Of a stretch of DNA of 34,108 nucleotides, positions 3,949 through 33,821 are shown piece after piece (positions within the stretch are counted from its first letter, which is position 1; each line of letters starts with the position of its first letter). Under the pieces are notes generated by a model. It saw only the letters and a program-made list of their open reading frames with translations. It searched no databases and was not told where the DNA came from. This stretch comes from a virus. Its lineage: Duplodnaviria; Heunggongvirae; Uroviricota; Caudoviricetes. Position numbers and translations under genes: made by a program. The stretch lies in the IMG/VR virus record IMGVR_UViG_2778261452_000005; one strand, given 5' to 3'.

Positions 3949-4802
3949 GCACCATCCTGAAATGGGCGGGAAATAAAACCGCCATTATGCCAGAACTGAA
4001 AAAATACCTTCCTGCTGGCCCGCGACTGGTTGAACCTTTCGCGGGTTCCTGTGCTGTGATGATGGAAACGGATTATCCCAGCTATCTGGTTGCGGATATT
4101 AATCCTGATTTAATCAACCTCTATAAAAAGGTTGCCGCTGATTGTGAATCGTTTATATCTCGCGCCAGAGTTTTATTTGAGATCGCAAACAGGGAGGTGG
4201 CTTATTACAACATAAGGCAGGAGTTTAACTGCTCAACTGAAATTACTGATTTCATGAAAGCGGTATATTTCCTGTATCTCAATCGTCACGGTTACCGTGG
4301 TTTATGTCGCTATAACAAGAGCGGGCATTTCAACATTCCCTACGGTAATTATAAAAATCCGTATTTCCCTGAAAAAGAACTTCGCACATTTGCAGAAAAA
4401 GCCCAGCGAGCAACGTTTATCTGCGCCAGCTTTGATGAAACGCTGACGATGTTGAAGGCGGGAGATGTGGTGTATTGCGATCCGCCATATGACGGTACGT
4501 TTTCCGGTTATCACACTGATGGTTTCACTGAAGATGACCAGTATCACCTGGCATCCGTTCTTGAACATCGGTCATCAGAAGGACATCCGGTCATTGTTTC
4601 TAACAGTGACACATCCCTGATCCGTTCGCTGTATCGCAATTTTACTCACCACTATATCAAGGTAAAACGCAGCATCGGTGTGGCAGCTGGCGAGGGTAAA
4701 TCAGCAACAGAAATCATTGCTGTTTCCGGGCCGCGCTGCTGGATGGGATTTGATTATTCGCGTGGCGTGGATAGTTCTGCCGTGTACGGAGTACGTGCAT
4801 GA
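3945..4802 (+). CDS. dam: Orphan DNA N6-adenine methyltransferase (Dam-like)
   Basis: ATG 3945; EPFAGS (motif I) and CDPPY (motif IV); ATGA overlaps on both sides, with the zinc-finger gene and with A. Confidence 0.85.
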
Positions 4803-7213
4803 GTCATGCCGATATGAACAACTGCTGCGGCTTTAACGAGGCTGCCGCAGCATTCTCATGGAACAGCACGAAAAAGGCCATTAACCCTTATCTGGACCCG
4901 GCGGAAGTTGCGCCGGTTTCTACGCTTTCAAACCTGATCACTCTGTACGCTGCCGATAACGAGCAGGAACAGTTGCGCCGCGAGGCACTGAGTGATCAGG
5001 TCTGGGAGCGTTATTTCTTTAATGAATCACGTGATCCTGTCCAGCGCGAAATGGAGCAGGATAAGCTCATTAGCCGGGCAAAGCTGGCGCATGAGCAGCA
5101 GCGTTTTAATTCAGACATGGTCATTCTGGCGGACGTCAACGCCCAGCCTTCCCATATCAGCAAGCCGCTGATGCAACGTATTGAATACTTCAGCAGCCTG
5201 GGCAGGCCAAAGGCTTATTCCCGCTATTTACGTGAGACGATTAAGCCATGTCTGGAACGACTGGAGCATGTACGCGACAGTCAGCTATCTGCATCTTTTC
5301 GCTTTATGGCAAGCCATGAAGGGCTGGACGGCCTGCTGATCCTGCCTGAAATGAGTCAGGATCAGGTGAAACGCCTGTCCACCCTGGTAGCTGCGCATAT
5401 GAGTATGTGCCTTGATGCAGCTTGTGGTGATTTGTATGCCACCGATGACGTTAAGCCAGAAGAAATCCGCAAGACATGGGAAAAGGTGGCAGCGGAAACC
5501 CTGCGTCTGGATGTCATCCCACCTGCGTTTGAGCAACTCCGTCGGAAAAGAAACCGCCGTAAACCCGTGCCCTATGAACTCATTCCGGGTTCGCTGGCGC
5601 GTATGTTGTGCGCCGACTGGTGGTATCGGAAATTATGGAAGATGCGTTGCGAATGGCGGGAAGAGCAGTTGCGCGCTGTTTGCCTGGTCAGCAAAAAAGC
5701 ATCTCCTTATGTCAGCTATGAAGCCGTGATGCATAGACGTGAGCAGCGCCGTAAGTCGCTGGAGTTTTTCCGTTCTCATGAACTGGTGAACGAAGACGGC
5801 GACACGCTGGACATGGAGGATGTGGTAAACGCCAGCAGCAGCAACCCTGCGCATCGCCGCAATGAGATGATGGCCTGTGTTAAAGGTCTGGAGCTTATCG
5901 CGGAAATGCGCGGTGACTGCGCCGTTTTCTACACTATCACCTGTCCGTCGCGTTTCCATTCCACGCTAAATAACGGCAGACCAAACCCGACCTGGACAAA
6001 CGCGACGGTAAGACAAAGCAGCGATTATCTGGTCGGCATGTTTGCTGCATTTCGTAAGGCGATGCACAAAGCCGGGTTGCGCTGGTATGGCGTGCGGGTG
6101 GCTGAGCCGCATCATGATGGCACAGTTCACTGGCACCTGTTGTGTTTCATGCGCAAAAAAGACCGCCGTGCCATCACTGCATTACTGCGTAAGTTTGCCA
6201 TCCGTGAAGACCGCGAGGAGCTGGGCAATAACACTGGGCCGCGCTTTAAGTCTGAGTTGATTAACCCGCGCAAAGGAACGCCGACAAGCTACATCGCGAA
6301 ATATATCAGTAAGAACATTGACGGTCGTGGTCTGGCTGGCGAGATCAGCAAGGAAACGGGTAAATCTCTGCGTGATAACGCTGAATACGTGAATGCCTGG
6401 GCGTCTCTGCATCGTGTTCAGCAATTCCGCTTCTTTGGTATTCCGGGGCGTCAGGCTTACCGTGAACTTCGCTTGCTGGCTGGTCAGGCGGCAAGGCAAC
6501 AGGGTGACAAAAAAGCAGGTGCGCCGGTACTGGATAACCCGCGTCTTGATGCCATTCTGGCTGCTGCTGATGCTGGTTGTTTTGCCACCTACATCATGAA
6601 GCAGGGCGGCGTACTGGTTCCCCGTAAATATCACCTCATCAGAACCGCTTATGAAATCAACGAAGAGCCGACCGCCTATGGCGATCACGGCATTCGTATT
6701 TATGGCATCTGGTCACCCATTGCAGAGGGCAAGATCTGCACTCATGCAGTGAAGTGGAAAATGGTTCGTAAAGCCGTTGACGTTCAGGAGGCGGCAGCCG
6801 ACCAGGGCGCTTGCGCCCCTTGGACTCGTGGCAATAACTGTCCCCTTGCTGAAAATTTGAACCAACAGGAGAAAGATAAATCAGCTGATGGGGACACCAG
6901 AACGGATATTACCCGCATGGATGACAAGGAGTTGCACGATTTTCTGCACAGTATGAACAAAAAAGAGCGCCGGGAACTGGCTGCAAGGTTACGCCTGGTG
7001 AAACCGAAACGGCGTAGAAACTACAAACAGCGAATTACAGACCATCAACGACAGCAGCTCGTCTATGAACTGAAGTCCAGAGGATTTGATGGCAGCGAGA
7101 AAGAGGTAGATTTACTCCTTCGCGGTGGCAGTATTCCGTCAGGAGCAGGCCTGCGTATCTTCTATCGGAACCAGCGTCTGAAGGAAGATGATAAGTGGCG
7201 GAACCTGTATTAA
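4799..7213 (+). CDS. A: Replication initiation endonuclease gpA (rolling-circle, HUH family)
   Basis: 804 aa; HUH-type motif VHWHLL and paired tyrosines YIAKYISK; position after the early operon as in P2/186. Confidence 0.9.
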
Positions 7214-7305
7214 TTACGCGGGTTAACAATTCGTGCTCTTAATAATACCAGGCATATCAGGCCGATGAACGTAAAAAAACGTTTTACATCAGTAAGATTA
7301 TTATA

Positions 7306-7325
7306 TACTGTAAATATAAACAGTG
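7306..7325 (+). promoter_or_regulatory. LexA operator (SOS box) upstream of the tum-like/dinI-like operon
   Basis: TACTGTAAATATAAACAGTG: CTGT-N8-ACAG with an AT-rich spacer, about 40 bp upstream of ATG 7366. Confidence 0.75.
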
Positions 7326-7365
7326 GTTATGTATACAGTATTGCTTTGGTGTTATAGGAGGAAAG

Positions 7366-7554
7366 ATGCAGGACTATTTTTTGGAGTCTTTGAAGCTCCA
7401 GCGCATTGATTTTTTTCTTAAGCTTGTAGCGGCTAGTGAGTGTAGTGATGAAGAGAAGGGGCTGGCCCTGCAGTGGGTTTCTGAACTGACAGATGAACTC
7501 ATGGCAAAAATCAGAACCCACGAATACAACCGCTCAATGGATGTCATCAGCTGA
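7366..7554 (+). CDS. Small SOS-operon protein (62 aa), possible Tum-like antirepressor N-terminal part
   Basis: AGGAGG SD; immediately downstream of the LexA box; same position as 186 tum. Confidence 0.55.
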   Translation: MQDYFLESLKLQRIDFFLKLVAASECSDEEKGLALQWVSELTDELMAKIRTHEYNRSMDVIS

Positions 7555-7564
7555 GGTGACTTTT

Positions 7565-7798
7565 ATGCGCATTGAAATAATGATCGATAAAGAGCAGAAG
7601 ATTAGCCAGTCTACACTGGACGCCCTTGAATCCGAGCTTTACCGCAATCTGCGCCCCCTGTATCCCAAAACGGTAATTCGTATCCGCAAAGGTAGCTCTA
7701 ACGGTGTGGAACTGACCGGACTGCAACTGGACGAAGAAAGAAAACAAGTGATGAAAATTATGCAGAAGGTGTGGGAAGACGACAGCTGGCTGCATTAA
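7565..7798 (+). CDS. DinI-family protein
   Basis: 78 aa, MRIEIMIDK...WEDDSWL resembles E. coli DinI; GAGGTG SD overlaps the stop of the upstream ORF. Confidence 0.75.
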   Translation: MRIEIMIDKEQKISQSTLDALESELYRNLRPLYPKTVIRIRKGSSNGVELTGLQLDEERKQVMKIMQKVWEDDSWLH

Positions 7799-7957
7799 GA
7801 AACGTTGCTGGCGTCTGAAATTGCTTCTGGCGTCAGCAAGGTTGAACAACGAGTACAGTGAGGCGTTAGGTGTGGCGTTTATTTGATGAGTGAACGCCCG
7901 TTCTGCGACAGGTTTGGAGATTAAGGTTGAAACTACGGGCAAAATACCATCTTTTTC

Positions 7958-8383
7958 CTACTTAATTGAGTCCAGTAACAAGTTACAGTTACTCTCATTG
8001 TAGAGAGAACGAGCAATTAGTGTTACCTGCTTTCCATTCATTCCCGGCTTATCCCATAACACAGCTTCTTGCGACGCCACAAATTCAGCATAATCAATTA
8101 TGCGTTGTTCGTGATCTGGTTCCTCATAGCCAAAGTATGAGAGCGCATCGTTGTAAGCGTGGTAAGCTGCTTTCTGTAATATCTTGATATCGGCTGTAGG
8201 TACTTGCTCCGTGTAGCTAGGATCTAATTGTGTGCTACTGCCATAGAATGCACATGAAAGGTAAGATATTGATTTCTGTTGAGCTTTAGTTCCTTTCTCA
8301 TAGTTTTTAGCTGTTACCGCCTGAACTGGGACGCTAACAAAGCTTGCAACCAGAATTAAAATTAATACGTAAAAGCTTTTCAT
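7958..8383 (-). CDS. Hypothetical secreted (signal-peptide) protein, 141 aa; cargo gene
   Basis: GAGGT SD; N-terminal MKSFYVLILILVASFVSVPVQA looks like a cleavable signal peptide; AT-rich; sits at the P2 tin/old-equivalent position. Confidence 0.6.
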   Translation of the reverse strand: MKSFYVLILILVASFVSVPVQAVTAKNYEKGTKAQQKSISYLSCAFYGSSTQLDPSYTEQVPTADIKILQKAAYHAYNDALSYFGYEEPDHEQRIIDYAEFVASQEAVLWDKPGMNGKQVTLIARSLYNESNCNLLLDSIK

Positions 8384-8569
8384 TTTGACCTCAGCCGAAA
8401 CGTTAGAGAGACTATCGAAGTTTGTAAAACCCGTGGCGATTCAGTTTGAGATCCTCCCCCTTACATGATTTTTAATCAAATATATGCTTTTGTAAGCATA
8501 CCTGTTAACCGAATTATTCATTTTTAGAGATCTTCCGACATACTGATTATGCCCGCTGAGGAGTTCACC

Positions 8570-8686
8570 TTGCGTAAAGTCCGATTCGCTTTACTCGTCT
8601 GTGCATGTCTATGCTGCATGAGATTGCATGATCGTTTGAGGATCGTTTTTGCTAAGGCCCGCCAGAACTGGCGGGCTTTTGCGTAG
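8570..8686 (+). CDS. Candidate small ORF (38 aa, TTG start), basic N-terminus and Cys-rich hydrophobic core
   Basis: GAGGAG SD 6 nt upstream of TTG 8570; translation MRKVRFALLVCACLCCMRLHDRLRIVFAKARQNWRAFA; terminator-like hairpin overlaps its 3' end. Too short for the ORF track. Confidence 0.25.
   Translation: MRKVRFALLVCACLCCMRLHDRLRIVFAKARQNWRAFA
8657..8680 (+). terminator. Intrinsic-terminator-like hairpin (GCCCGCCAG..CTGGCGGGC + TTTT)
   Basis: GC-rich inverted repeat 8657-8676 followed by TTTT at 8677-8680. Confidence 0.45.
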
Positions 8687-8725
8687 ATTATGCACCTGCA
8701 TGAAAACCACTACATAAAGCGGGCA

Positions 8726-8744
8726 GGCGTGGCGGGGATACGAG
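8726..8744. other. Candidate cos (cohesive-end) site
   Basis: GGCGTGGCGGGGATACGAG resembles the 19-nt P2/186 cohesive ends as I recall them (GGCG[A/T]GGCGGGGAAAGCA-); located in the gpA-to-Q intergenic region where cos maps in P2-like prophages. Confidence 0.45.
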
Positions 8745-8833
8745 CGCGCGCTGATGGGGGACGCAGTGCTTTTGGCATAGTTATGAGGTAGAATTTCAAA
8801 ATACTTTTTAGCGCTGTTGGAGGTATAGACAAA

Positions 8834-9379
8834 ATGGACGTTATAACTGGAGTTGCAGAGTTTTTTCGAAAAGTACCTGCAGCATTTCTTGTGGCTATTA
8901 CATGTGTTTTAGGTCTTATACTTTTTCTGCCAGACTCTTTGGCAGTAAAAGTGGCTGTTGATGGCTTTCGTAATGAGTATAGGATTTTTATTGGACCTGC
9001 ATTTTTACTGTCTGTATCTTATTTAGTTGCAAGAGTCTATCTCTCTTTCTATGACTTACTTGGTGAAAGGCAGGCTAAGAAGGTACGCACTTCCTACCTT
9101 GAGAAGCTAACAGCAGAAGAAAAAGGATATTTAAAGTCTTATATTACCGAAGGTGTTAATTCACTTATGTGTGGGCCTGAGGATGGGGTCATGGGGGGAC
9201 TTGTGGCTAAGGGGATTACTTATAGAGCCACCAGTGTTGGGGATATGATCTACGGTTTTGCTTTCAACTTACAGCCATGGGCGCGTGAACATTTAGAGAA
9301 AAATAGTCATTTATTAGATGGGGCTATTGGGCGTGCAATGACTCCAAGAGAAAAATTAAACTTTAGATTGGGACGCTAA
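8834..9379 (+). CDS. Hypothetical inner-membrane protein (181 aa, two N-terminal TM helices); possible superinfection-exclusion/abortive-infection candidate
   Basis: GGAGGT SD; two hydrophobic helices (about aa 14-35 and 51-71) and a soluble C-terminal domain; lies between the cos-like site and the portal gene, where P2 has no gene. Confidence 0.6.
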   Translation: MDVITGVAEFFRKVPAAFLVAITCVLGLILFLPDSLAVKVAVDGFRNEYRIFIGPAFLLSVSYLVARVYLSFYDLLGERQAKKVRTSYLEKLTAEEKGYLKSYITEGVNSLMCGPEDGVMGGLVAKGITYRATSVGDMIYGFAFNLQPWAREHLEKNSHLLDGAIGRAMTPREKLNFRLGR

Positions 9380-9408
9380 CCAGTCACACATTACCAATGT
9401 GTGACTGG
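9380..9408. terminator. Perfect 11-bp inverted repeat between convergent genes (likely terminator)
   Basis: CCAGTCACACA-ttaccaa-TGTGTGACTGG directly after stop 9377-9379, followed by a T-rich tract. Confidence 0.5.
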
Positions 9409-9423
9409 TGGTGGTTATTTCTT

Positions 9424-10458
9424 TTATTCAATGTCAAATTTATATGGTTCAAAAGAAATAACCTTTTCCCCCAACCACTCATTTAGTTCTTCGAGTCTTT
9501 TTTGTAGCGGTATTAACTCATTACGGACAAAGACGCGGCTGGCTTTTTCCACATCACCAAAGCCGCCGGTATTGTTAGGAATAATGCCCATCATCTGCGG
9601 CGGTACGCGGTGTGCTGCCATCATGTCATCGCGGCTCACGTTCTTAATGTTCAGAAATTCATCCTTTGCTGCAACCTCAGACAGTGGGATGATCTGGATG
9701 CCGTCTTTTTTACCGTTGGGCGAATACATAAACAGGTTGCGGAAGTTGCCCGGACCTTTGGCGCTTTTCATCGCGTTGCGGAGGTTGTTCACATCCTCCT
9801 GGTTCTGCGCGGCGTCAGTCATATACATGATGAAGCCTGCATGGCTGCCGTTGATGTAATACTTACGGCGGAACAGCGTGGCGGACTCGTTGAGCAGGGC
9901 TGACGGAATGGCAGAAAGATAACCGGGCAGGCCGTAGATCTCCTGATTAATATCCGGTTCCATCAGATGAAAAATGCTGCCTTTCGTGAACTGATACGGC
10001 TGGGTTGTCATACCGTATTGCACAAACCAGTAGGTATCCAGGTCTAATCCGCGTCGGGTGTATTTTGCCAGCGCAGGTTCAAGGGCGATCACTTCACCGA
10101 AGCGGTTCGTGCGTTTCTCCAGATAGGCATTGCCAAATACCAGATAGTCCTGCACAAAACGCGAAAAAGCCTGCTGGCTGAGCAGCGGGTGAGGGATGTA
10201 GGTACTGGTCAGAATGTTGCACTTTACTGCAATCGGGGAACTGTGATGCACTGCAGCGCGGAAGGTGCGCGCCAGTCCGTCAAAGCTGACGGGCGGCTCA
10301 TACCAACGGTCCATCTGTACGCATTCCACATAGTCCAGTAATTCTCGGCGGTCCAGAACAGGAACGGGATCGCCGAAGCTGAATGCTTCGGCTGTAGTTT
10401 GACTTTTAAGCTGGATCTGTTTCGTCGCCGCAGCGCGGTTCTTCTTACTCTTTCCCAT
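9424..10458 (-). CDS. Q: Portal protein (P2 gpQ-like)
   Basis: 344 aa from ATG 10456-10458 (track ORF starts at TTG 10461); length and position match P2 Q; overlaps the P stop. Confidence 0.85.
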   Translation of the reverse strand: MGKSKKNRAAATKQIQLKSQTTAEAFSFGDPVPVLDRRELLDYVECVQMDRWYEPPVSFDGLARTFRAAVHHSSPIAVKCNILTSTYIPHPLLSQQAFSRFVQDYLVFGNAYLEKRTNRFGEVIALEPALAKYTRRGLDLDTYWFVQYGMTTQPYQFTKGSIFHLMEPDINQEIYGLPGYLSAIPSALLNESATLFRRKYYINGSHAGFIMYMTDAAQNQEDVNNLRNAMKSAKGPGNFRNLFMYSPNGKKDGIQIIPLSEVAAKDEFLNIKNVSRDDMMAAHRVPPQMMGIIPNNTGGFGDVEKASRVFVRNELIPLQKRLEELNEWLGEKVISFEPYKFDIE

Positions 10459-12224
10459 CAAAAAATCTCCACAATATTGCTGGTATTGGCGGATTCGCCC
10501 TGCAGCGGTTCGTTAAACAGTGCGTGCATCGTTGCCCAGGCCAGATCGGCATGGCTGGCTTCTTCGCTGCGGCTGGCTTCATAGGTCGGGCGGTTGCCAC
10601 TGGCGGTGGTGGCGCGACGGATTGCCATGAATGACTGCGCAATGTCGGTGTGCCCGGCGTCAAACTCCAGACGGCGGTGGCTGATAATGTCGTAGGCCTT
10701 GAGTACCAGGGCGTTTTTAACGTTGGGGTTGTAGACAAACTCCCGGACGGCAGGAAAGAACGCTTTCACGTTCTCATAAACCCCGTGACCAACGCCGGTT
10801 GAGTCGATGCCGATATAGGTCACGTTGTACTGTTCGGTCAGTTTTTTGATGGCGTCAGCCTGGGCGCGAAAGTCCATCCCGCGCCACTGGTGACGCTCAA
10901 GAATGCGGAACTTGCCGCCCGGCACGGCTGGCGGTGCCACCACCACGCATCCGGCACTGTCGCCGTTCTGCGTACCTTTCGCCGGGTCATAACCGATCCA
11001 CACTTCGCGCCAGCCAAATGGGCGCAGTGCCAGTGCATGAAAGTCGGTCCAGACTTCCCAGCTGTCCACCATGCACGCCTGCAGCTCGCTGAGTGGGAAC
11101 ACAGACGCGAGATCGTCCACAAACTCGCACATCAGCAGGTTCTGGTATTCGTCCGGGCTGTACTCCATGCGTAACTGATCGAGGTCGAACAGGTTACATC
11201 CGCCGCGCACTGCATCTTCCACGGTGACAATCTGGCGGTATTGCCCATCTGCGCACAGCAGGCCGGGGGCCAGATTGCTGTGGGACAGGTCGATGTCCAC
11301 CTTATCTGCTTTGTTGCGCCCACGGTTGAATAGCGCACCGGACCAGAACGGATAAGCACTGTGTGTCAGGCTGGATGGCGTGGAAAAATAGGTTTGTCGC
11401 CATTTCTTGTGAATAGCCATACCGGAAGCCACTTTGCGCAGCTCCTGGAATTTCGGTATCCAGAAATATTCATCCAGATACAGGTTGCCGTGATAACTCT
11501 GGGCCGTGCGGGCATTGGTGCCGAGGAAGTAAAGCGTGGCCCCGTTAGGAAGCACCATCGGATCGCCTTTCAACTCCACCTCCACTTCTTTGGCGAAGTC
11601 GATGATGTACTGCTTAAAGACGTGGGCCTGTGCCTTGCTGGCGGAAAGGAAAATCTGGTTACGTCCGGTCAGCAGGGCGTCAATCAGGGCTTCACGGGCA
11701 AAGTAAAAGGTCGCGCCGATCTGGCGTGACTTCAGCAGGTTGCGGATGCGGTTGGTTTTTCCGGCTTCCCACCAGTGGCGCTGGTAGTTGAACATGGAGG
11801 AATGGAAGATTTCTTCCAGCTTCTCAATCTGCTCATCGGTGAAAACATTCTTTTCCGGCTGACGGCGTGGGCCTTTGTTGCGGTTGGCGACGTTAGGGTT
11901 TAAGTCGGATTCGTTGCCGCCATTGTTAAACTTGCCGATCCGCGCGTGGCGCTCAGACTGGCGCGCCAGCAGGTCAATCTCTTTGAAATCTTTCCCTTCT
12001 TTGTGCTCCTTCATAATGAGCTGGCAGTAGCGTGCGGCGGTGGTGAGCTGCATCTGATCCAGCGGCCCATAGTCACCCCACTTGTCGCGTTTTTTCCAGC
12101 TGTGAACGGTTGCAACTTTCTCGCCCAGCATTTCAGCAATGCGGGCTACGCGGTATCCCTGAAAGTACAGCAGCATGGCCTGCCGACGGGGATCGAGATC
12201 TGCGGGTGTCAGTGTGGTGTTCAT
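10458..12224 (-). CDS. P: Terminase large (ATPase) subunit (P2 gpP-like)
   Basis: 588 aa; divergent from O; size and position as P2 P. Confidence 0.85.
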   Translation of the reverse strand: MNTTLTPADLDPRRQAMLLYFQGYRVARIAEMLGEKVATVHSWKKRDKWGDYGPLDQMQLTTAARYCQLIMKEHKEGKDFKEIDLLARQSERHARIGKFNNGGNESDLNPNVANRNKGPRRQPEKNVFTDEQIEKLEEIFHSSMFNYQRHWWEAGKTNRIRNLLKSRQIGATFYFAREALIDALLTGRNQIFLSASKAQAHVFKQYIIDFAKEVEVELKGDPMVLPNGATLYFLGTNARTAQSYHGNLYLDEYFWIPKFQELRKVASGMAIHKKWRQTYFSTPSSLTHSAYPFWSGALFNRGRNKADKVDIDLSHSNLAPGLLCADGQYRQIVTVEDAVRGGCNLFDLDQLRMEYSPDEYQNLLMCEFVDDLASVFPLSELQACMVDSWEVWTDFHALALRPFGWREVWIGYDPAKGTQNGDSAGCVVVAPPAVPGGKFRILERHQWRGMDFRAQADAIKKLTEQYNVTYIGIDSTGVGHGVYENVKAFFPAVREFVYNPNVKNALVLKAYDIISHRRLEFDAGHTDIAQSFMAIRRATTASGNRPTYEASRSEEASHADLAWATMHALFNEPLQGESANTSNIVEIF

Positions 12225-22643: not shown

Positions 22644-23783
22644 TTATGCTGTCTTGAACTGTAAAAGCACTTTACTAATTCTTCCCGACAGTAATACAGC
22701 TGGTTTATCGAAAAGACGATAGAAACCCCAGGACACTGGTAAGCTTATGGCTACGCAAATTATTATTGATATGAGGCTTGCTGCTAATTCATCAATGCGT
22801 AAGGACAAGTAGTTAAATGATGGTATTGCTACCGCGTAAATTAAAACCATTTGTAATAAATATAATGAGAAAGATATCTTGCCTAAAAATATTGCTGGTT
22901 TTGTAGATAGTATATTGTTAACCCCATTGCTCCTCAATGCAAATAAAACAATAAAAATACCAGAGAATAAAAACAGGGTGTACTCAGTTAAGTAATTATT
23001 AATATCTGAGAAAATGCTTGAATAGGCATATGATTGTACTTTATATCCAGCAAAGTATAATCCAAGAATTAGGATTGCGACAGATGATTTTTTTGATAGT
23101 TTAATATTTGTCTTGTATATTACGGAGCCAGACATAAAACAAGCCAATCCATAGTATAGTGCGTCGCCATCATTGTAATAGCCTAGTGATAGGAATATAA
23201 GAAATACAATCGCTGGAAAAAGTGCGGAGTTTGTTTTCTTGGATATAAATAGTAAAGCCAGAATATATGATCCGATGAGTTCAATTTTCATGGTCCATAA
23301 TACCCAGTTATAGGTCTTAACACCATCCCCACCAAAAGCACCTATTAATCCTGTGAATATGGCACCATGTAAGCTGTAATCAAAGGTTCCTAGATTTGAG
23401 GCCCATTCGGAAATGCCAGTTCTATTTATATCTATGTGTGAGTATACAGCCCATCCAATCAAACAAGAGAAAAATACTGGCACCATTAATCTTATATATC
23501 TTTTTAAAAGGAATGCAAAGAAAAGAATTGAATCAAATCGCTTAGAGAAACTTGAAGATAAAACAAAACCACTTAATACAAAGAATACGTAGACTCCAGC
23601 AGAGCCAGAGTAAAAAAAAGAGAAAGGAGAGTTCATGATATAACTCTCAAAAGAATACCTCATGGACTCTGCTGCATGCATATATGGGTAGAAAGTATAT
23701 GCAAGATGTGAGAAAAACACAGCAAGACAGGCGATGCCTCTGAGACCGTCCGCATTACTATTGTGTTCTTGAGCAACACTCAT
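22644..23783 (-). CDS. Membrane acyltransferase (acyltransferase-3 / OafA-like family), probable lysogenic-conversion cargo
   Basis: About 10 predicted TM helices; N-terminal motif DGLRGIACLAVFFSHL typical of acyltransferase-3 enzymes; strongly AT-rich; inserted between G and FI (the P2 Z/fun position). Confidence 0.75.
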   Translation of the reverse strand: MSVAQEHNSNADGLRGIACLAVFFSHLAYTFYPYMHAAESMRYSFESYIMNSPFSFFYSGSAGVYVFFVLSGFVLSSSFSKRFDSILFFAFLLKRYIRLMVPVFFSCLIGWAVYSHIDINRTGISEWASNLGTFDYSLHGAIFTGLIGAFGGDGVKTYNWVLWTMKIELIGSYILALLFISKKTNSALFPAIVFLIFLSLGYYNDGDALYYGLACFMSGSVIYKTNIKLSKKSSVAILILGLYFAGYKVQSYAYSSIFSDINNYLTEYTLFLFSGIFIVLFALRSNGVNNILSTKPAIFLGKISFSLYLLQMVLIYAVAIPSFNYLSLRIDELAASLISIIICVAISLPVSWGFYRLFDKPAVLLSGRISKVLLQFKTA

Positions 23784-23854
23784 GAAAATTAACCTATGTT
23801 TAGAGTAATGTAGCCTAAAACGCCTAATCAAAAATAGGCGGATACCTTTGAGGC

Positions 23855-31488: not shown

Positions 31489-33174
31489 TTATCCTAATCC
31501 TGGCCATACCATGACGATGATTGTCCCTGCCAGCGTCAGCAGGACGTTGGCGATTGCGTAGGTGCCCGCATAGCCCAGCGCAGGGATGTTACTGCGAGCT
31601 GTATCACTGATGATCTCCATTGCCGGCGCGCAGGTGCGTGCGCCCATCATTGCGCCGAACAACAGTGCGCGGTTCATTCGCAATACATAAGCACCGAACA
31701 AGAAACAGATAACCACGGGCACAAGACTGACAATTAATCCGGCAATCAACATCTGACCGCCAATCGCGCCCAGGCCGTTATTAATACCGCTACCGGCGCT
31801 CAGACCAACGCCTGCCATAAACACCATCAAGCCGAACTCTTTCACCATGCTTAATGCACCTTGCGGAATGTAACCGAAGGTCGGGTGGTTAGCACGCATA
31901 AAGCCCAGCATAATTCCGGCGAATAACAACCCGGCAGCGTTCCCCATGCCGAAACTGAATGTGCTGAACTGGAAGGTGATCATCCCGATCATCAGCCCAA
32001 TAACAAAGAAGGCGCAAAATGCCAGCAGGTCAGTGACCTGGCTGTGAATCGAGATAAAGCCGATGCGATCGGCGATGGTTTTTACGCGACGGGCATCACC
32101 GCTGACTTGTAAAACGTCACCTTTGTTAAGCACGACGTTGTCATCTATCGGCATCTCAATCTGGCTACGAATGACGCGGTTAAGGAAGCAACCGTGATCG
32201 GTCAACTTCAGTTGTGCGAGACGTTTACCTACAGCGTTATGGTTTTTAACGACCACTTCTTCAGTGACGATACGCATGTCGAGAAGGTCACGATCGAAAA
32301 CTTCTTTACCGTTACGGAAGCTGGGATCGAGTCGGGCATGGGCGTCGGGATAGCCTACCAACGCTATTTCATCGCCCATTTGTAGCACGGCATCACCGTC
32401 TGGATTTGCCAGAATCCCGTTACGTCGAATACGTTCAATGTAGCAGCCGGTTTGTCGATAAATACCCAGTTCACGCAGATTTTTGCCGTCGGTCCAGGCC
32501 ACCAGCTCCGGGCCGACGCGATAGGCGCGGATCACCGGTAAATAAACCTTACGGTTGGCATCAGTGTCCAGGCCACGTTCGCGGGCGATTTGCTGGGCGC
32601 TGGTCTGTAAGTCCTGATGCTGCAATTTCGGCAAGTAACGCGCACCAACAATCAAACTCACCAGACCGATTAAATAGGTTAAGGCATACCCGAGGCTCAG
32701 ATTATCCAGTGCCAGTGAGAGCTGCCTGCTTTCCATGCCGGAATGACGCAGTGTATCGCCAGCACCGACCAGAACCGGTGTCGACGTCATAGAGCCTGCT
32801 AACATACCGGCCGTCAGGCCAATATCCCAGCCAAACAGCTTACCTAACCCTAAGGCGATCACCAGCGCACTGCCAACCATCACCAGTGCTAACATTAGGT
32901 AATTTTTCCCATCGCGAAAAAAAATGGAAAAAAAGTTCGGTCCGGCTTCGACCCCGACGCAGAAAATAAACAGCATAAAGCCAAGATTAAGCGCATCGGT
33001 GTTAATGCTGAAATGTTGTTGGCCTAATAACAGCGATACGACTAAAACGCCAATGGAATTACCCAGTTGGATCGAACCAAGTCGTAACTTTCCGAGACAT
33101 AGCCCAAGCGCGAGGACCACAAATAATAACAGAATGTAATTCCCATTTAACAATTCGGCGACGTTTATATTCAC
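31489..33174 (-). CDS. ybjL: Putative transport protein YbjL (host chromosome)
   Basis: 561 aa multi-TM protein with central soluble domains; N-terminus [20 protein letters not shown] matches E. coli YbjL as I recall it; GTG start. Confidence 0.85.
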
Positions 33175-33443
33175 GGAGGCTAACTTCTTGTTTACTAGTA
33201 AGCTGTTGAAAGAAATGGTAATTTACGATAATGTTTTTTACCAGAATTCAGGGCGCAGATTCATTCAGCGCACCTAAACGATAGTAAAGTAACAATATAT
33301 TTTACTAGTGTAATCACATTAGGTATCAACGGCTATATGAATTGCGTTGGCCTATATTAGCATGGAATGCGAAGCGGCTTTATCTTACTGAACGCCACAC
33401 TGGCGAAAAATGTGTTCGATAGACGCAGTGTCAGGAGGAACGA

Positions 33444-33821
33444 GTGAAACATAAACAACGTTGGGCGGGGGCAATCTGCTGTTTTGTCCTCTTCATTGTG
33501 GTGTGCCTTTTTCTGGCGACGCACATGAAAGGCGCTTTTCGGGCTGCCGGGCATCCTGAAATCGGCTTGCTATTTTTCATTCTTCCTGGAGCAGTCGCCA
33601 GCTTCTTTTCACAGCGTAGAGAAGTCCTGAAACCTCTGTTTGGCGCAATGCTGGCGGCACCCTGTTCGATGCTCATTATGCGGCTGTTTTTTTCACCGAC
33701 GCGCTCATTCTGGCAAGAGCTGGCATGGTTACTAAGCGCGGTGTTCTGGTGTGCGCTGGGGGCACTGTGTTTCTTATTTATCAGTAGTTTGTTTAAACCA
33801 CAGCACAGAAAAAATCAGTAA
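33444..33821 (+). CDS. ybjM: Inner membrane protein YbjM (host chromosome)
   Basis: 125 aa, GTG start with AGGAGG SD; sits between ybjL and grxA as in E. coli K-12. Confidence 0.8.
   Translation: MKHKQRWAGAICCFVLFIVVCLFLATHMKGAFRAAGHPEIGLLFFILPGAVASFFSQRREVLKPLFGAMLAAPCSMLIMRLFFSPTRSFWQELAWLLSAVFWCALGALCFLFISSLFKPQHRKNQ

Follow-up and report, generated by a model that had tools for sequence, protein, structure and literature searches.

A lone leftward gene beside cos

The window analyzed here, a stretch of 34,108 nucleotides (nt; IMG/VR record IMGVR_UViG_2778261452_000005), is a complete P2-family prophage of the 186/Fels-2 type from Escherichia coli, and our subject is a gene in it that encodes a protein of 141 amino acids (aa) next to the cohesive-end site (cos). 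The genes for the replication endonuclease gpA, a 62-aa open reading frame (ORF; p62), and a DinI-like protein precede this gene on its left, and cos, recognized by a sequence that is unique in the window (chance expectation 0), lies on its right. A superinfection-exclusion gene of the SieB family sits across cos from the 141-aa gene, between cos and the portal gene Q, which is followed by the terminase gene P (Table 1). As a reading of the DNA letters alone (the sequence-only reading) had noted, the 141-aa gene is the sole leftward gene between gpA and cos; gpA, the 62-aa ORF, and DinI are all on the plus strand. The same reading described the gene as opposite to all its neighbors. This holds for DinI and SieB, to both of which it is antiparallel, and is slightly overstated for the wider region, where portal Q and terminase P are leftward too. 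A leftward orientation is normal for conversion genes at this slot, because tin and old of P2 are on the same strand there.

The ratio of nonsynonymous to synonymous substitution rates (dN/dS) of the gene is 0.18-0.21 in comparisons with its orthologues from Klebsiella (90% aa identity, dS 0.23) and Hafnia (77% aa identity, dS 0.76). Copies that are at least 99% identical are present in 101 of 5,426 complete E. coli genomes (~2%), on the chromosome every time. This low dN/dS and this prevalence show that the ORF is a genuine gene kept by selection, not one that arose by chance. Its reading frame, Shine-Dalgarno sequence, and promoter-like site are intact in all copies. Two other ORFs nearby were treated as chance ORFs: one of 131 aa that is antisense to DinI, and one of 45 aa within the conserved cos-proximal DNA (Table 1).

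A small protein predicted to be exported

The ORF is exactly as quoted in the sequence-only reading, which had proposed a secreted 141-aa protein with a typical signal peptide, and the predicted features agree with that proposal. A lysine at position 2 precedes a 10-residue hydrophobic core (mean Kyte-Doolittle value 3.3), and V-Q-A occupies the -3/-1 region of a predicted cleavage site between residues 22 and 23. The signal-peptide segment has a low predicted local distance difference test score (pLDDT) in the model of the full-length protein. The mature part contains no further hydrophobic segment (maximum 19-residue mean 0.35) and no transmembrane (TM) helix. The sequence criteria for Sec export and cleavage by signal peptidase I, namely a charged n-region, an h-region, suitable -3/-1 residues, and no later TM segment, are all found in this protein, and we infer that the 141-aa precursor would be exported to the periplasm and cut after Ala22.

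There are exactly two cysteines, C44 and C133, and both are in the mature part, as had been described. We modeled the mature sequence with AlphaFold from an alignment of 21 sequences and obtained a model with a pLDDT of 95.5 and a predicted template modeling score (pTM) of 0.88. It consists of five helices (mature residues 3-31, 41-62, 69-88, 98-108, and 111-118) and places C44 in the first helix and C133 in the last; a periplasmic disulfide between the two is probable in this model. The predicted fold, a plain bundle of helices, had no identifiable relative in the libraries searched: a Foldseek comparison with the BFVD viral models returned nothing below E 0.35, and a sequence-profile search of the PDB gave no matches at E of 10 or less. 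No cofactor or catalytic motif is visible in this 13-kDa helical protein.

An inserted cassette in a cos-proximal hotspot

The gene lies in an insert that can be delimited by its empty site. In the related phage vB_EcoM-813R9, the DinI terminator is joined straight to the cos-proximal DNA, and 60 phage records match only the flanks of the cassette region. The gene has a GC content of 40.4%, versus 51.6% for the whole window, in line with the AT-rich composition reported for it earlier. The order gpA, p62, DinI, reversed 141-aa gene, and cos is constant in 30 IMG/VR contigs, while the distance between the gene and the portal gene ranges from ~1 to 3.4 kb among them, which shows that cargo on the other side of cos varies on its own. 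The 141-aa gene fills the same slot in four Klebsiella loci and two IMG/VR contigs that lack DinI, and the Klebsiella loci have AIPR, nSTAND, or other genes across cos.

The cassette carries expression signals of its own, a Shine-Dalgarno sequence and a predicted sigma-70-like promoter on the cos side of the gene (Table 1). In Klebsiella, where the DNA from cos through the gene is 92% identical, the promoter-like site reads CTAACA / TATGTT. A perfect 7+7 palindrome (TATGCTT-ACAA-AAGCATA) in the predicted promoter spacer is likewise conserved in Klebsiella and may be an operator or a coincidence. For the cassette transcript, the hairpin behind DinI is the sole stop candidate; it is weaker on the minus strand and may terminate transcription in both directions. 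No Rfam family was found in the interval 7200-9500. We infer that the 141-aa gene is expressed from the prophage.

P2 has tin and old in the same slot and on the minus strand, annotated as lysogenic conversion genes, with an mRNA start ~150 bp from cosR. Anti-phage systems are abundant in the interval between gpA and gpQ, a variability hotspot with 1,650 arrangements (Rousset et al. 2022, PMC9122126), and four new defence systems were found at this position (Vassallo et al. 2022, PMC9519451). Table S5A of the former study (PMC9122126) lists WP_000834899 as "hypothetical" in several arrangements, and its representative-sequence Table S5B, in the version consulted, does not contain the sequence of the 141-aa protein. 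A literature search did not find the accession WP_000834899 in main texts.

The position beside cos in the gpA-gpQ interval shared with tin and old, the empty site in 813R9, the deviant GC content, and the antiparallel unit with its own Shine-Dalgarno sequence and promoter-like site (activity predicted) are all found for this gene. It is thus well supported that the 141-aa gene is the cargo of a lysogenic-conversion or moron cassette in the cos-proximal hotspot of P2-family prophages, an independently acquired moron as the sequence-only reading had it. The gene resembles old, tin, and other hotspot cargo in its slot between the replication gene region and cos, its leftward direction, its predicted promoter on the cos side, its AT-richness, and its variability among near-identical phages. 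In contrast to old and tin, its product is a small protein with predicted export and not a cytoplasmic nuclease, ATPase, or abortive-infection protein, and neither old and tin nor the PADLOC models have homology to it. The gene is therefore ordinary in kind, one more uncharacterized cassette of a catalogued hotspot in which it is listed as hypothetical. It is out of the ordinary in that it combines a soluble product, predicted to be exported, with a tiny mobile-element family and a confident model that has no identifiable relative.

Table 1. Coordinates of the 141-aa gene, its cassette, and other features of the window (window positions, except in the last row).
Feature	Position	Strand	Basis or remark
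Gene for the 141-aa protein (ATG start; WP_000834899.1; PHROG 7437)	7958..8383 (stop codon included)	-	ORF list, RefSeq annotation, PHROG match
Sec-type signal peptide MKSFYVLILILVASFVSVPVQA, codons 1-22, predicted cleavage between VQA and VT	8318..8383	-	n/h/c-region calculation
Mature domain, 119 aa, 13.4 kDa, pI 5.1 (acidic), five helices (predicted)	7961..8317	-	AlphaFold model and conservation
Shine-Dalgarno sequence GAGG, 5 nt before ATG	8389..8392	-	From sequence; invariant in Klebsiella loci
Sigma-70-like promoter site TTAACA-18-TATATT, 10/12, ~95 nt upstream	8479..8508	-	Consensus scan; prediction only
Palindrome in predicted promoter spacer	8483-8500
Whole cassette, ~0.73 kb, only the 141-aa gene inside	7856..8608 (left edge fuzzy, 7856-7885)		Empty-site alignment
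Decayed remnant of two-TM-protein gene, last ~26 codons, two in-frame stops	8406..8489	-	blastn and translation
Second, shorter copy of part of the remnant	8524-8548
Hairpin after DinI (DinI terminator)	7805..7840	+	RNA folds, alignment; at empty site too
cos cohesive-end sequence GGCGTGGCGGGGATACGAG	8726-8744	+	15/19 identical to annotated P2 cosR; outside cassette
131-aa ORF	7547-7942	-	Treated as chance ORF
45-aa ORF	8549-8686	+	Treated as chance ORF
Integrase	1-1131	-
CI repressor	1449-2024	-
Replication endonuclease gpA	4799-7213	+
62-aa ORF (p62)	7366-7554	+	PHROG 698
DinI-like gene	7565-7798	+
GC-rich hairpin followed by TTTT	8651-8682	+	In conserved cos-proximal DNA
SieB-family gene	8834-9379	+	PF14163, 4.5e-25
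Portal Q	9424-10461	-
Terminase P, 588 aa	10458-12224	-
Acyl_transf_3 acyltransferase gene	22644-23831	-	PF01757, 9e-26; downstream of tail-fibre genes
Host genes ybjL (Asp-Al_Ex/TrkA_C) and ybjM	31489-33821		Flank right end of prophage
Secreted-protein arrays in loci of relatives	L008 6267-8635 (= L053 1861-4229); L019 4315-5381; L056 5540-6917; also L055, L018

The trace of a lost partner gene

The 107 nt upstream of the ATG (8384-8490) are 73% identical (78/107; blastn 9e-14) to the 3' end of a Hafnia gene for a two-TM protein and the spacer that follows it. The translation of this remnant, KHIFD*KSCKGEDLKLNRHGFYKLR*SL (asterisks are stops), aligns with KHTFDYKSGKWEDLK--PWEFYRFRDAL in the Hafnia protein. 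A P2-like prophage of Hafnia alvei carries the homologue of the 141-aa gene (77% aa identity) at another accessory position, flanked by tail genes S and V. The gene upstream of this homologue stops 21 nt short of its start codon and encodes a 215-aa protein with two TM helices at the N-terminus. Similarly, a small Klebsiella aerogenes element has a family member (32% identical to the Hafnia member) that is preceded by a 219-aa two-TM protein, and the two membrane proteins share 29% identity (3e-18). Because the DNA upstream of the 141-aa gene matches the 3' end of the Hafnia two-TM gene, the E. coli and Klebsiella cassette is a two-gene module truncated at its 5' end. The predicted -10 hexamer falls within the pseudogene remnant, and the trace of the lost partner is a small, clear example of how a hotspot cassette is trimmed and gains a promoter of its own. 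Part of the remnant recurs as a shorter copy (22/26 nt) ~78 nt further upstream.

The coupling of the two genes is suggestive, not obligate. The two-TM family comprises only three clusters, far fewer than the 141-aa family; the third two-TM homologue has an unrelated gene downstream, and most members of the 141-aa family have no two-TM neighbor. The two-TM protein has no recognizable export or toxin domain.

A small family confined to mobile elements

The sequence-only reading assigned the protein to no recognizable family. This stands for Pfam, NCBIfam, PADLOC, and the PDB, none of which gave a match, and does not stand for PHROG, in which phrog_7437 ("unknown function") matches the protein from end to end (4e-99). 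The protein belongs to this cluster, and since the cluster has no function, the match provides a name only. Pfam searches with all 21 family members returned only scattered single chance matches, none of them at E of 1 or less to immunity or LprI (PF07007) families. No homology to holins, endolysins, spanins, or virion proteins was found in PHROG or BFVD. The sequence-only reading had named two observations that would speak against it, the lack of a signal peptide and homology to a phage structural or lysis protein. Neither was made: the signal-peptide features are present, the sole PHROG match is of unknown function, and the Foldseek comparison with BFVD likewise points to no such protein.

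Seven clusters of the family came from a word-indexed search of 5.8 billion proteins. Among 1.84 billion representatives, a HMMER profile search identified 14 true members (125-145 aa) and three low-complexity chance matches, and a few further members came from a second indexed search. The named members, from E. coli, Klebsiella, Enterobacter, Citrobacter, Salmonella, and Hafnia, are all annotated as "hypothetical protein", and all sources are prophages, phage-plasmids, and plasmids of Enterobacterales. No relative was found in a reference scan of one genome per species. The family is strictly accessory, very small, and restricted to mobile elements. We also found the 141-aa gene in 33 IMG/VR contigs. 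Searching 50,697 GenBank phage records with three different family members (tblastn) gave no match; given the presence of the gene in 101 complete E. coli genomes and 33 contigs, it seems that the prophages carrying it have yet to be isolated as phages. Isolates that carry the gene are of human, animal, and avian pathogenic E. coli (APEC) origin and also environmental (seawater and wastewater), and they represent several genera.

All 21 relatives examined keep the n/h/c layout of the signal peptide, while the signal sequence itself diverges. C44 and W110 are invariant in the family, and conservation reaches 90% or more at Y41, A73, A99, N116, Y128, N132, and C133; helix 3 and the W-D-K-P-G-M-N loop behind it form the most conserved stretch. 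One member, from Enterobacter roggenkampii (P0005), has the lipobox LSAC in place of the signal peptidase I site and has lost its C-terminal 16 residues, including the second cysteine, and is either a lipoprotein variant or a decaying copy.

Relatives are found in many genomic contexts. Lambdoid prophages have them behind the tail-fibre genes or in the early-left region; elsewhere they occur at the end of a prophage adjacent to icd, beside integrases at the Klebsiella eco-mqo site, near ParA/ParG genes, and, on a Salmonella plasmid, amid a mer operon and insertion sequence (IS) elements. As lone genes, often antiparallel to their neighbors, they occur in lambdoid prophages, SSU5-like phage-plasmids, and plasmids. 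For example, the relative on SSU5-like IncFIB phage-plasmids is a lone plus-strand gene amid minus-strand genes, and these phage-plasmids also carry an annotated LprI-family lysozyme inhibitor ~3 kb away. Other relatives are part of arrays of secreted proteins (Table 1). A secreted family of 157 aa (L008) or 165 aa (L056) recurs in these arrays (32% identity, 2e-22), and a ~105-aa lipoprotein family with five cysteines recurs in three loci. The 157/165-aa family has the same layout as the 141-aa family, with a cysteine in the first helix, a W, and N-C near the C-terminus. It may be a remote paralogue, though an hhalign probability of only 21% over 37 residues does not establish this. None of the array and neighbor proteins has a Pfam, PHROG, NCBIfam, or PADLOC annotation, and no cognate toxin or type VI secretion system (T6SS) gene lies beside the relatives in the ~15 contexts examined.

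Proposed function and alternatives

Since the protein is small, stands alone, and lacks a visible cofactor or catalytic motif, the simplest reading is that it binds and neutralizes a target that acts in the periplasm. The phage context, the anti-phage bias of the hotspot, and the SieB gene next door favor superinfection exclusion. As a whole, we favor a conversion cassette whose exported product is a stoichiometric binder that excludes superinfecting phages at an envelope step, and we give this reading a probability of about 0.4. The promoter-like site ~95 nt upstream would direct synthesis of the 141-aa precursor from the prophage, and Sec export with cleavage after Ala22 would yield the acidic five-helix bundle of 13.4 kDa. 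The cassette derives from a two-gene module whose upstream gene was cut to ~85 nt, and the 141-aa protein would work free of the partner. As a stand-alone stoichiometric binder in the periplasm, the mature protein would neutralize an incoming protein that has to act in the envelope, and the likeliest target would be the cell-wall-degrading or DNA-ejection machinery of a superinfecting phage.

A candidate analogue of such a binder is Spackle of phage T4 (Sp, gp61.3; PDB 6X6O, 7CN6), a cleaved periplasmic helical bundle with a disulfide between its first helix and C-terminal region, which inhibits the gp5 tail lysozyme 1:1 (PMC7677548). Both are phage-encoded, small, acidic, and compact helical bundles with a cleaved signal peptide and a single disulfide of first-helix/C-terminal type (cleavage, fold, and disulfide being predictions for the 141-aa protein), and Spackle acts alone in the periplasm, as the 141-aa protein may do. 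They differ in that mature Spackle has 75 aa, versus 119 aa, and in that it is encoded by an early gene of a lytic phage, whereas the 141-aa gene is prophage cargo of temperate elements. Homology to Spackle was rejected (hhalign probability 3%, with only the signal peptide aligned), and Spackle (6X6O / 7CN6) was absent among the fold matches listed. The likeness would accordingly be one of function only.

Several observations weigh against the exclusion reading. No homology ties the 141-aa protein to any activity, and PADLOC-DB 2.0 has no family that matches it at E of 5 or less. Three promoter-consensus matches were found in the region versus 4.1 expected from shuffled sequences, which is no enrichment, and RNA folding found no clear intrinsic terminator for the gene. 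The gpA-gpQ hotspot carries partition systems and cytolethal distending toxin as well (PMC9122126). In the Hafnia and K. aerogenes loci the family is coupled to a membrane protein, and a partner may be needed in trans. Lastly, relatives are often part of translationally coupled arrays of small secreted proteins and lipoproteins, which fits immunity arrays at least equally.

This last point bears on the main rival, which we consider unlikely: an orphan periplasmic immunity protein or inhibitor directed against a non-phage enzyme, such as a T6SS amidase, muramidase, or lipase effector, a bacteriocin, or an animal lysozyme, through which the lysogen would gain protection in inter-bacterial or host competition. 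Arrays of small secreted proteins and lipoproteins are typical of immunity genes, and those that include the relatives are tight, consist of unrelated proteins, and are located on mobile elements. The 141-aa protein has the general make-up of periplasmic immunity proteins and lysozyme inhibitors (Pfam Tai4, LprI/DUF1311, Pim), which are small, Sec-exported, often helical, disulfide-stabilized, and orphan on mobile elements; its export and disulfide are predicted. The LprI-family inhibitor on SSU5-like phage-plasmids indicates that such elements transport periplasmic inhibitors, and in Hafnia and K. aerogenes the gene is downstream of its partner, the order expected for an immunity gene behind a toxin gene, in which case loss of the upstream gene would leave an "orphan". 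Against this, the relatives have no toxin or T6SS gene beside them in the contexts examined, the upstream two-TM protein lacks a recognizable export or toxin domain, and the family resembles none of the known inhibitors: the 21 members have no match to Pfam immunity families, and direct comparisons were negative for pesticin immunity Pim (hhalign probability 0.2% with Pim of pPCP1) and for LprI/DUF1311 (PF07007; 3.6%, signal peptide only).

An improbable alternative is a host-interaction or fitness factor that contributes to virulence, colonization, or envelope stress, as other exported prophage morons do. Export is predicted and expression in lysogens probable for the protein; human, animal, and APEC isolates carry its gene; and virulence cargo such as the cytolethal distending toxin is known from the hotspot (PMC9122126). 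However, the protein has no similarity to any virulence, chaperone, or stress family, and its presence in seawater and wastewater isolates and in several genera gives no apparent disease link.

We also hold it quite improbable that the protein serves a membrane protein, at first the upstream two-TM protein, as its periplasmic accessory or regulatory subunit and modulates an envelope process such as signaling, transport, or a stress response; in E. coli it would then act through a host membrane protein or a related protein in trans. Two family members with a mutual identity of only ~32% are each directly preceded by one of two homologous two-TM proteins, and a remnant of the two-TM gene survives upstream in the window. 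The two-TM family is, however, far rarer than the 141-aa family, one of its three clusters is followed by an unrelated protein, most members of the 141-aa family lack such a neighbor, and the lone gene of E. coli and Klebsiella is still under purifying selection. Least likely is a functionless leftover of the degraded module that hitch-hikes by cos, as the ~85-nt pseudogene fragment of the upstream partner might suggest, given the dN/dS of ~0.2 between the lone E. coli and Klebsiella copies (dS 0.23), the intact frame, Shine-Dalgarno sequence, and promoter-like site in all copies, and the persistence of the family across several element types.

The roles first proposed for the protein, as an immunity protein, inhibitor, or virulence factor, are reasonable candidates that are compatible with everything found. 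It is a tentative possibility that the protein founds an unrecognized family of soluble periplasmic exclusion or immunity factors, without a fold match in the PDB or BFVD, carried by mobile elements of Enterobacterales, once partnered with a two-TM protein and now autonomous in the P2-like prophages of E. coli and Klebsiella, where it would block an envelope entry step or an imported toxin by a mechanism not described before.

The characterized cargo of the P2 cos-proximal hotspot is mostly cytoplasmic and includes nucleases, retrons, and abortive-infection systems. Soluble periplasmic factors of prophages are few, and their mechanisms are informative on the passage of phage DNA or toxins through the envelope; examples of such factors are T4 Spackle and P1 Sim. 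Experiments on the 141-aa gene would cost little, since it is a compact single-gene candidate with a high-confidence model and is found in ~2% of complete E. coli genomes. Activity against phage entry or an antibacterial enzyme would establish a new protein family, possibly with a target step that is also new; if inactive in such assays, the gene stays one among many unexplained hotspot genes.

Other features of the prophage

A Dam methylase gene is also among the phage genes of the window, and the late genes come after terminase P. A prophage of E. coli MB06234 matches the interval 7800-9450 at 100% identity, and in it the 141-aa gene is annotated as WP_000834899.1, "hypothetical protein". 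That prophage (locus L001, 8659-10605), otherwise identical, is degraded, and its cut-down terminase abuts a truncated tail-fibre gene. The 588-aa terminase of the window is intact, and the window prophage is therefore a different, intact lysogen. The combination of SieB and the 141-aa cassette is rare: a 7800-9450 query is covered to 80% or more in only 1 of the 5,426 complete E. coli genomes.

Ahead of cos, the conserved cos-proximal DNA, at the empty site too, contains a strong GC-rich hairpin followed by a run of T (GGCCCGCCAG-AA-CTGGCGGGC-TTTTGC), which is probably the terminator of rightward early transcription. Another probable conversion gene, in the second P2 hotspot, is the leftward acyltransferase gene that follows the tail-fibre genes. 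A related prophage of K. aerogenes (L004) adjoins ybjL and ybjM, the same host genes that flank the right end of the window prophage, which suggests a shared attachment site.

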